From: a virus
Reading direction: 5' to 3' (one strand)
Length of the DNA: 64,000 bases
Virus record (IMG/VR): IMGVR_UViG_3300045988_166471
Span: 2,366 to 66,365 of that record
In this document: positions 42,869 through 42,943 of the stretch, piece after piece
Layout of the letters: each line of letters begins with the position of its first letter
Numbering within the stretch: position 1 is the stretch's first letter
Made by a program: the position numbers and the translations under genes
Notes under the pieces: generated by a model
Told to the model about the DNA's origin: nothing
The model's input: only the letters and a program-made list of their open reading frames with translations
Databases searched by the model: none

Positions 42869-42943
42869 TGGCGGAGGGAGTGGGTGCTGCCCCCACTTCA
42901 CCGGTTTTAGAGACCGGAGCATTTGCTGCTATGCTATCCCTCA
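42869..42943 (-). tRNA. Amber-suppressor tRNA (anticodon CUA), atypical D- and T-loops, Gln-like identity elements. Candidate decoder of the in-frame TAG codons
   Basis: Cloverleaf is TGAGGGA-TA-GCAT-AGCAGCAA-ATGC-T-CCGGT-CTCTAAA-ACCGG-TGAA-GTGGG-GGCAGCA-CCCAC-TCCCTCC-G-CCA. Perfect 5-bp anticodon stem, U33, C34-U35-A36, A37. Discriminator G73 plus CCA. U1 with weak 1-72 pair and G10 match GlnRS identity elements. D-loop lacks GG and T-loop lacks TTC. Confidence 0.6.

Follow-up and report, generated by a model that had tools for sequence, protein, structure and literature searches.

The 64,000-nucleotide stretch of viral DNA analyzed here (the window) carries on its minus strand a gene for a suppressor tRNA with the anticodon CUA, tRNA-Sup(CUA), from which the canonical G18-G19 and U54-U55 (T-Psi) are absent, A18-G19 and G54-G55 standing in their place. 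We put at roughly three in four the probability that this is a functional phage tRNA gene whose product would be charged with glutamine by host enzymes, would read the in-frame TAG codons of the phage and would hold its L shape through a rebuilt elbow. Phage suppressors that convert TAG to Gln are a known kind of molecule; this one is a new structural variant, and the class of tRNAs to which it belongs is apparently undescribed. A search of the literature retrieved no description of this elbow.

The RNA, which is the reverse complement of the gene, begins with UGAGGGA UA GCAU AGCAGCAA AUGC U CCGGU CUCUAAA ACCGG and continues with UGAA GUGGG GGCAGCA CCCAC UCCCUCC G CCA. The acceptor stem presents six Watson-Crick pairs and a U1.C72 mismatch, and is separated by 2 nt from a D arm with a 4-bp stem and an 8-nt loop. 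A perfect 5-bp anticodon stem closes a loop with U33, the CUA triplet and A37, and is followed by a variable loop of 4 nt, a T arm with a 5-bp stem, and G73 with the encoded CCA (Table 1). This cloverleaf had been proposed from the letters of the DNA alone, and every stem and loop listed in that sequence-only reading, together with G73 and CCA, lies where it had been placed. The conserved tRNA core (U8, A14, A21, U33, R37, G53:C61, and C56) is complete in the window copy and invariant across the CUA family described below. The minimum-free-energy fold is the same cloverleaf, with a z value of -1.83 and 11 of 200 shuffled sequences folding as well; since this folding energy is ordinary for the composition, the case rests on comparative evidence.

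Table 1. Positions of the suppressor tRNA, its parts, and other features of the window
Feature	Position	Strand	Remarks
tRNA-Sup(CUA) gene, Gln-like, G55-type elbow	42869..42943	(-)	75 nt including encoded CCA
Acceptor stem, 5' strand UGAGGGA	42937..42943	(-)	U1 unpaired opposite C72
D-loop AGCAGCAA	42923..42930	(-)	A14; A-G replacing standard G18-G19; A21
Anticodon CUA	42908..42910	(-)	loop CUCUAAA at 42906-42912
T-loop GGCAGCA	42885..42891	(-)	G54 G55 C56 A57 G58 C59 A60
T-stem strands GUGGG / CCCAC	42880-42896	(-)	enclose the T-loop
Acceptor stem, 3' strand UCCCUCC, with G73 and CCA	42869..42879	(-)	G73 at 42872; encoded CCA at 42869-42871
GIY-YIG (SegE-like) endonuclease ORF	42949-43722	(-)	4 in-frame TAGs; stops 6 nt short of the suppressor's 5' end
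Candidate promoter, TTGAAA-17-TATAAT	43892..43920	(-)	best sigma-70-like match, 11/12; a consensus match, regional match count not above shuffled expectation
ROOL RNA	44655-45248	(-)	full length, 323 bits
RAGATH-33 RNA	41820-41932	(-)	135 bits
Split tRNA-Leu(UAA)	41946-42769	(-)	exon 1, 42769-42736; insert, 42735-41998; exon 2, 41997-41946
HNH endonuclease-like ORF in the tRNA-Leu(UAA) insert	42106-42552
tRNA-Gln(UUG) of the phage	45418-45492	(-)	T-loop UCCGAUU (C55 for U55), normal GG D-loop
1202-codon ORF, example client gene	37915..41523	(-)	19 in-frame TAGs
DHH/RecJ-like ORF, client gene	754..2526	(-)	14 in-frame TAGs; used to read the code
Endolysin (CHAP + Amidase_2)	20197-21588	(-)	3 in-frame TAGs
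Putative radical-SAM/SPASM ORFs	24548-25858, 52905-54296, 54275-55786, 56222-58234	(-)	5-12 TAGs each
Three TAG-free cargo ORFs	30752-33247, 33820-35376, 26251-27666	(-)

ARAGORN, run on the window, did not call the gene, and called five other tRNAs nearby on the minus strand (Gly, Tyr, Gln-UUG, Pro, and Thr); nor is the gene listed by Rfam with default filters. When permissive filters were used, the Rfam tRNA model (RF00005) matched positions 42872-42943 on the minus strand from end to end (model positions 1-71 of 71) with 38.9 bits, above the gathering score of 29 bits, and the default search thus missed the gene because of its speed filters. The E value of this match is 6.9e-7 for a search of 401 nt and 1.1e-4 for the whole window, and our own model, R1, gives the gene 86.7 bits. 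The searches with ARAGORN and Infernal had been suggested as checks by the sequence-only reading, and the second of them speaks for the tRNA. ARAGORN misses it because the TTC and GG boxes are gone, which in most cases also defeats the Infernal speed filters: in the CUA family, default-filter Rfam found L002 and L142 and missed the window copy, L086, L060, and L076, four of the six tested. Some tRNAs of the wider class defined below, termed G55-type, are likewise found by default-filter Rfam, at reduced scores. In arrays from 43 sources, ARAGORN missed 86 of 101 G55-type genes (85%), so that phage tRNA repertoires are under-counted, and it called none of 47 distinct tRNAs with the T-loop GGCAGCA.

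Homologs were gathered through pattern scans over viral contigs and cellular genomes. Near-identical copies are present in two close relatives of the window phage, L001 and L086, the contig of the latter being binned with a metagenome-assembled genome (MAG) labeled "uncultured Mollicutes", and diverged copies occur in L002, L060, L076, L115, and L142. In all, homologs lie on at least eight other contigs; the flanks are dissimilar except in the close relatives, and the diverged phages share the tRNA alone. In an alignment of seven distinct sequences (A4), 95.2% of the pair cells are paired, and 11 of the 21 pairs have changed on both sides, across all four helices and including 3:70, 6:67, and 7:66. 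None of 500 shuffled alignments matched this, and sliding the partners by one to three columns reduced pairing to 27-47%. RNAalifold, run without a supplied structure, returned the same cloverleaf, lacking the 1:72 pair only. Invariant across the family are C32, U33, C34, U35, A36, and A37, as well as U1, G10, G73, and CCA. Related phages thus show the compensatory changes that the sequence-only reading had proposed looking for, and its claim of a genuine tRNA gene with anticodon CUA agrees with the Rfam score, the covariation of the stems, and the RNAalifold cloverleaf. On these comparative grounds, tRNA-Sup(CUA) is a conserved structured RNA gene, beyond chance.

The window has a G+C content of 29%, and nearly all of its long ORFs are on the minus strand. 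When TAG is read as a sense codon, the summed open frames of at least 100 codons rise from 16,915 to 24,903 codons. Individual ORFs contain 11 to 19 in-frame TAGs; the gyrase subunits and the ligase contain none. The meaning of the codon was read from the DHH/RecJ-like ORF, where 6 of the 14 TAG sites align with Q in 101 to 120 of 120 homologs, over a background Q frequency of 3.6%. These columns are CAA codons in the DNA of P0107, a homolog with 50% identity, and the reading of TAG as Gln is therefore not circular. At the poorly conserved TAG columns of the same ORF, homologs often carry E, K, or D. Judged from these alignments, the window phage is one of genetic code 15, with TAG standing for Gln. 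The recoding of TAG, taken as given in the sequence-only reading, is borne out by the in-frame TAGs in many genes and by the alignment with Gln and CAA in homologs. Release factor and synthetase genes are not seen among the annotated ORFs of the window, which are a subset of all its ORFs.

The distribution of TAG among other genes of the window is uneven. The endolysin is recoded, consistent with reports of recoded lysis genes in recoded phages. Four putative radical-SAM/SPASM ORFs, judged from Cys motifs in their translations, are among the most TAG-rich genes. Three ORFs with unusual cargo are TAG free: they encode an 831-amino-acid protein that combines the shoulder and repeat domains of major vault protein, a DUF2828/DUF7788 protein with a match to PHROG 850, "RNA-binding protein" (E = 4e-132), and an SPFH/flotillin-like protein.

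tRNA-Sup(CUA) had been taken for the likely decoder of TAG, and it is the sole CUA tRNA within the 64-kb window, where ARAGORN and permissive Rfam searches detected no second one. The whole genome measures 113 kb or more, and the related phages L076 and L116 each carry two CUA tRNAs in tandem; a second, canonical CUA tRNA may therefore lie beyond the window. The gene could also be a decaying pseudogene in which the missing GG and TTC boxes reflect a loss of function, with TAG decoded by a host factor or by a tRNA encoded in the rest of the genome. The standard finders reject it, and of the six tRNAs that Rfam finds in the window only one scores lower. Decay is highly improbable, given that diverged phages keep these loops and compensate for changes in the stems, that the anticodon loop, U8, A14, A21, C56, and CCA are intact, and that the coordinated A18/G55 change recurs within arrays, where about 90 distinct tRNAs with many different specificities show it.

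The identity set of Escherichia coli GlnRS includes U1 with a weak 1:72 pair, G73, G10, G2:C71, and G3:C70, with U35, G36, A37, and U38 as determinants in the anticodon loop; a CUA suppressor such as supE necessarily has A36. U1-A72 is also recognized by the amidotransferase GatCAB, and U1 with a weak 1:72 pair and G73 is a signature for both enzymes. The window copy presents G2:C71, G10, U35, and A37; across the CUA family, position 38 is occupied by A or C in place of U. Five of seven family members are mismatched at 1:72, four with U.C and one with U.U, and the other two have U-A. The 3:70 pair is A:U in L002, L086, L115, and the window copy, G:C in L060 and L076, and C:G in L142. Members of the family with canonical elbows also have U1.C72 and G73. 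When the loops and the T arm are set aside, L060, L076, and L002 have phage tRNA-Gln (CUG/UUG) as their closest non-suppressor tRNAs, with 64-72% identity; in the same comparison, the window copy has no close neighbor outside the CUA family. The tRNA-Gln of these phage arrays commonly have A:U, U:A, or an A.C mismatch at 1:72, and G73. The Gln-like elements U1, weak 1-72, G73, and G10, to which attention had been drawn from the sequence alone, are family traits: U1, G10, and G73 do not vary, 1:72 is usually mismatched, and the nearest relatives are tRNA-Gln.

Which enzymes would perform the charging depends on the host. The endolysin with CHAP and Amidase_2 domains and the Mollicutes-binned relative suggest a low-GC, Gram-positive-type host. 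Such hosts often have no GlnRS, and that of the window phage may lack it and possibly form Gln-tRNA through GluRS and GatCAB. The route to Gln-tRNA may thus be either GlnRS or GluRS/GatCAB. The same possibility opens the way to a working suppressor that inserts something other than Gln, either Glu, placed by a nondiscriminating GluRS without conversion by the amidotransferase, or a mixture of amino acids. The E, K, or D of homologs at poorly conserved TAG columns would fit such a suppressor, as would the sibling CUA tRNA of phage L075, which is built on a clearly Glu-like body. Still, insertion of another residue appears unlikely: the six well-conserved TAG columns are occupied by Q and encoded by CAA, the neighbors of the family are tRNA-Gln and not tRNA-Glu, and U1, the weak 1:72 pair, and G73 form a GlnRS/GatCAB signature. 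We therefore retain glutamine as the residue that tRNA-Sup(CUA) would deliver.

The elbow of the molecule was analyzed within a class of tRNAs, named G55-type, defined by a T-loop N-G55-C56-R-N-N-A combined with a GG-less D-loop that has A-G at positions 18-19. The window tRNA belongs to it through GGCAGCA and AGCAGCAA. A covariance model built from ten class members and run over 436 kb of phage tRNA arrays returned 132 distinct tRNAs, whose T-loops include GGCAGCA (47 distinct sequences), GGCAGUA, GGCGGCA, AGCAUUA, AGCGUUA, CGCAAYA, and UGCGACU; G55 is common to these loops and C56 is kept. Position 55 is tightly linked to the D-loop. Of the tRNAs with U55, 30 have a D-loop with GG and 1 has a D-loop without it, whereas the corresponding numbers for G55 are 6 and 86 (Fisher p = 1.4e-21, kinship ignored, for mutually related sequences collected through T-arm matching, which makes the invariance of the T arm partly a matter of construction). 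The GG-less G55 tRNAs carry N-A-G-Y in the D-loop, and most of the six exceptions are "CAGG" loops that retain the A-G step. Positions 54:58 covary as well, as U:A, G:G, A:U, or C:A. The switch at 18:55 is found in several T-loop backgrounds, between L015 and L140, and within the CUA family itself. There, the L116 type has the D-loop AACGGCUA (GG) and the T-loop UUCGAUU, L115 combines the D-loop AGCGGCAA (GG) with U55 in the T-loop GUCGGCA, and the window copy has AGCAGCAA (AG) with GGCAGCA; the T-stem, U1, and G73 do not differ among the three.

Few tertiary contacts in biology are conserved as strongly as G18.Psi55, and G54 and G55 are unable to carry the usual modifications m5U54 and Psi55. 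The most parsimonious reading of the covariation in the class is that G18.U55 has been replaced by A18.G55, for which we infer an A.G geometry as a model, and that G19:C56 is most likely retained. This departs from the sequence-only reading. That D-loop GG and T-loop TTC are missing was correct, as A18-G19 and G54-G55 are found there, but the elbow appears rebuilt and not lost; the two pairs G18-G19/Psi55-C56 had both been considered absent, and only 18:55 seems to have changed, in a manner that covaries across about 130 tRNAs, with G19:C56 in all likelihood kept. The motif GCAGCA does occur in both loops, as had been observed. Its sharing is a coincidence of this sequence, since siblings keep the T-loop with the D-loops AACAGUG, ACCAGCUA, and AAAAGUA; kissing of the two loops or GCAGCA self-similarity as the key feature was rejected for the same reason, the D-loops of siblings (AACAGUG, ACCAGCUA) being different. 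In the tRNA-Gln(UUG) of the phage, position 55 is also changed, to C, and the D-loop is normal.

The G19:C56 face is the stacking surface for RNase P, the ribosome, and T-box RNAs (PMC4810234), and its retention fits a continued use in translation. The tRNAs of phage T5 all differ from host tRNAs around the D-loop, amid defenses that target tRNAs (PMC12475279). It is plausible that the change of the elbow helps the tRNA to evade host proteins or RNAs which recognize or cleave tRNAs.

The sequence-only reading had presented the molecule as a structural oddity, and on this point it has to be revised, as the elbow recurs in a class of phage tRNAs with at least 13 specificities. The 17-nt T arm GUGGG-GGCAGCA-CCCAC is present in about 35 other viral cloverleaves, with anticodons for Asp, Glu, Phe, Gly, His, Ile, Lys, Met, Pro, Ser, Thr, and Val, in addition to CUA. 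Nearly all of these end in N-CCA, and they occupy gaps in dense phage tRNA arrays, where class members supply isoacceptors absent from the list given by ARAGORN for the array. The 43 sources hold 101 G55-type and 336 U55-type genes, and the former are usually a minority, with 1 to 10 per array among canonical ones; the idea that the G55 elbow is a genome-wide trait of particular phages was unsupported and was dropped.

G55-type tRNAs were found only in uncultured viral or MAG contigs. Among representative genomes of 185,579 species, one per species, the exact T arm occurs in a tRNA context in only five contigs, all from MAGs, and in no isolate genome. Four of these have dense tRNA arrays and look phage derived, and the fifth is L086, the close relative of the window phage. 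In 50,697 GenBank phage records, no G55-type instance was found: there was no homolog of tRNA-Sup(CUA) (the one match is to another CUA tRNA, a canonical one), no match to the T arm within a tRNA context, and none to the commonest class member or to a G55-rich array. The tRNA region of the cultured Streptomyces phage TunaTartare contains no G55-type tRNA, and a metagenome scan with the three-loop signature gave no match.

Other CUA tRNAs were observed in the course of this survey. Tandem pairs occur in related phages (L076, 2992-3159; L116, about 1230-1394; L151, L156, L169, L138, and L170), with one member having a long variable arm and a canonical elbow; the other, short-arm member has a canonical elbow in the L116 type and is G55-type in L076. 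A widespread canonical-elbow CUA family with a conserved long variable arm (UAUAUCCCUCUGAAGGAGGUAGU) accounts for about 40 of the 74 loci L113-L184 (e.g., L134, L157, and L178), often with an A1.C72 mismatch or a U1-A72 pair, and with G73. The G55-type CUA tRNA of L075 (5228-5301, plus strand) has a Glu-like body, A73, nearest neighbors that are all tRNA-Glu, and no encoded CCA, and with such a body one may ask how that phage reads TAG.

The suppressor lies in a cluster of tRNA and structured RNA genes that also holds tRNA-Tyr, tRNA-Gln, tRNA-Pro, tRNA-Thr, tRNA-Gly, and a split tRNA-Leu(UAA). The candidate promoter upstream of the GIY-YIG ORF could drive this ORF together with tRNA-Sup(CUA); in L086, which has no GIY-YIG ORF, the homologous region is located about 100 nt upstream of the tRNA. 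An intrinsic terminator was not found nearby. The GIY-YIG ORF is present in L001, and this patchy presence is as expected for a free-standing homing endonuclease. Within tRNA-Leu(UAA), an intron-like insert of 738 bp, which follows U and ends in G and carries the HNH endonuclease-like ORF, separates U34 from A35, which is the classic position of the tRNA-Leu group I intron; the Rfam group I model has no match in the insert. L086 has an intact tRNA-Leu(UAA) of 86 nt. A weak "tmRNA" match at 41946-42016 corresponds to exon 2 of this gene.

The ROOL and RAGATH-33 RNAs of the cluster are both conserved in L086. Their proximity raises the question of a tRNA-shaped RNA with a nontranslational role, such as a decoy for tRNA-directed nucleases, a primer, or a partner of ROOL or RAGATH-33, all the more as a changed elbow could alter protein or RNA partners and as the Rfam viral tRNA-like element gives a weak match (23.5 bits, with a cut-off of 40; a viral tRNA-like 3' element was rejected at this score). 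A role of this kind is quite improbable. The anticodons of the class vary like a normal isoacceptor set around a constant elbow, U33, R37, the discriminator, and CCA are present, and the phage clearly needs a CUA decoder.

In the preferred reading, that of a suppressor acting in translation, tRNA-Sup(CUA) would probably be transcribed together with the minus-strand tRNA and noncoding RNA cluster and be processed at both ends to the 75-nt tRNA, whose CCA end is already encoded. Host enzymes would then charge it with Gln for delivery to the in-frame TAG codons. In its elbow the outer pair G19:C56 would be kept, G18.Psi55 would become A18.G55, and U54.A58 would become G54/G58.

In the survey by Borges et al., only 40% of the TAG-recoded phage genomes had TAG suppressors, and noncanonical tRNAs that escape detection were suspected (10.1101/2021.08.26.457843); recoded phages without detectable suppressors have also been noted by others (PMC10607447). 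Now that a signature is defined and a covariance model finds relatives, missing suppressors become testable by rescanning recoded phage genomes. A bolder proposal is that the A18.G55 elbow, with G54/G58, is a phage-specific, selected architecture that would free phage tRNAs from host T-loop modification enzymes or hide them from readers of the canonical elbow, and that such suppressors would explain a real part of the TAG-recoded phage genomes, roughly 60%, that seem to have no suppressor; we hold this to be possible and rather doubtful. The natural and repeated A18.G55 swap, with U54.A58 changed to G:G, A:U, or C:A, also probes what RNase P, EF-Tu, the ribosome, and modification enzymes need of the elbow, and genetic-code engineering may find useful orthogonal parts in suppressors whose elbows are unusual.

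Among known systems, tRNA-Pyl shares with the window tRNA the CUA anticodon, in a loop CUCUAAA, G73, and noncanonical D- and T-loops without the G18G19 and T54Psi55 boxes. That the molecule itself is of the pyrrolysine type has next to no probability, and this reading was rejected on geometry: tRNA-Pyl has a 6-bp anticodon stem, a 3-nt variable loop, a 1-nt spacer between the acceptor and D stems, and a tiny D-loop, whereas the window tRNA is a 7/4/5/5 cloverleaf with a 5-bp anticodon stem, a 4-nt variable loop, a 2-nt spacer, and an 8-nt D-loop. Moreover, TAG is aligned with Gln and not with Lys-like positions, and there are no pyl genes among the annotated ORFs of the window. Animal mitochondrial tRNAs with degenerate D- and T-loops are also without canonical G18G19/TPsiC, but the loops of the window tRNA are of normal size and strongly conserved (GGCAGCA; N-A-G-Y), and their changes are coordinated, which points to a defined alternative tertiary contact and not to a relaxed one. 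With the generic T-loop motif of tRNA, RNase P, rRNA, and T-box RNAs (PMC4810234), it has in common the 7-nt loop, the closing G53:C61 pair, C56, and the purine at position 57; it differs in G55 and in 54:58, which is G:G here and also A:U or C:A in the class, and a T-loop fold is putative. E. coli supE, a tRNA-Gln with CUA, is similar in placing this anticodon on a Gln-type body with U1 and a weak 1:72 pair, G2:C71, G10, G73, U35, and A37, whereas A3:U70, A38, a true 1:72 mismatch, and the noncanonical elbow set the window copy apart from supE and the GlnRS set.

The closest counterparts are the tRNA-Sup(CUA) of code-15 phages, including crAss-like phages, Lak, and phAss-1 (10.1101/2021.08.26.457843, PMC10607447, PMC9523058). 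The window phage resembles these in its low GC content, in the use of TAG in a subset of genes, in the meaning of TAG as Gln, and in a CUA tRNA that would be charged by host enzymes, and, likewise, no phage synthetase or release factor appears among its annotated ORFs. Neighboring phages of the L116 type even carry canonical-elbow members of the same tRNA family. The window copy differs in having A18/G55 and G54/G58 in place of G18/U55 and U54/A58 and in being missed by ARAGORN and default Rfam, and it is thus a concrete case of the noncanonical, undetected suppressor suspected by Borges et al.
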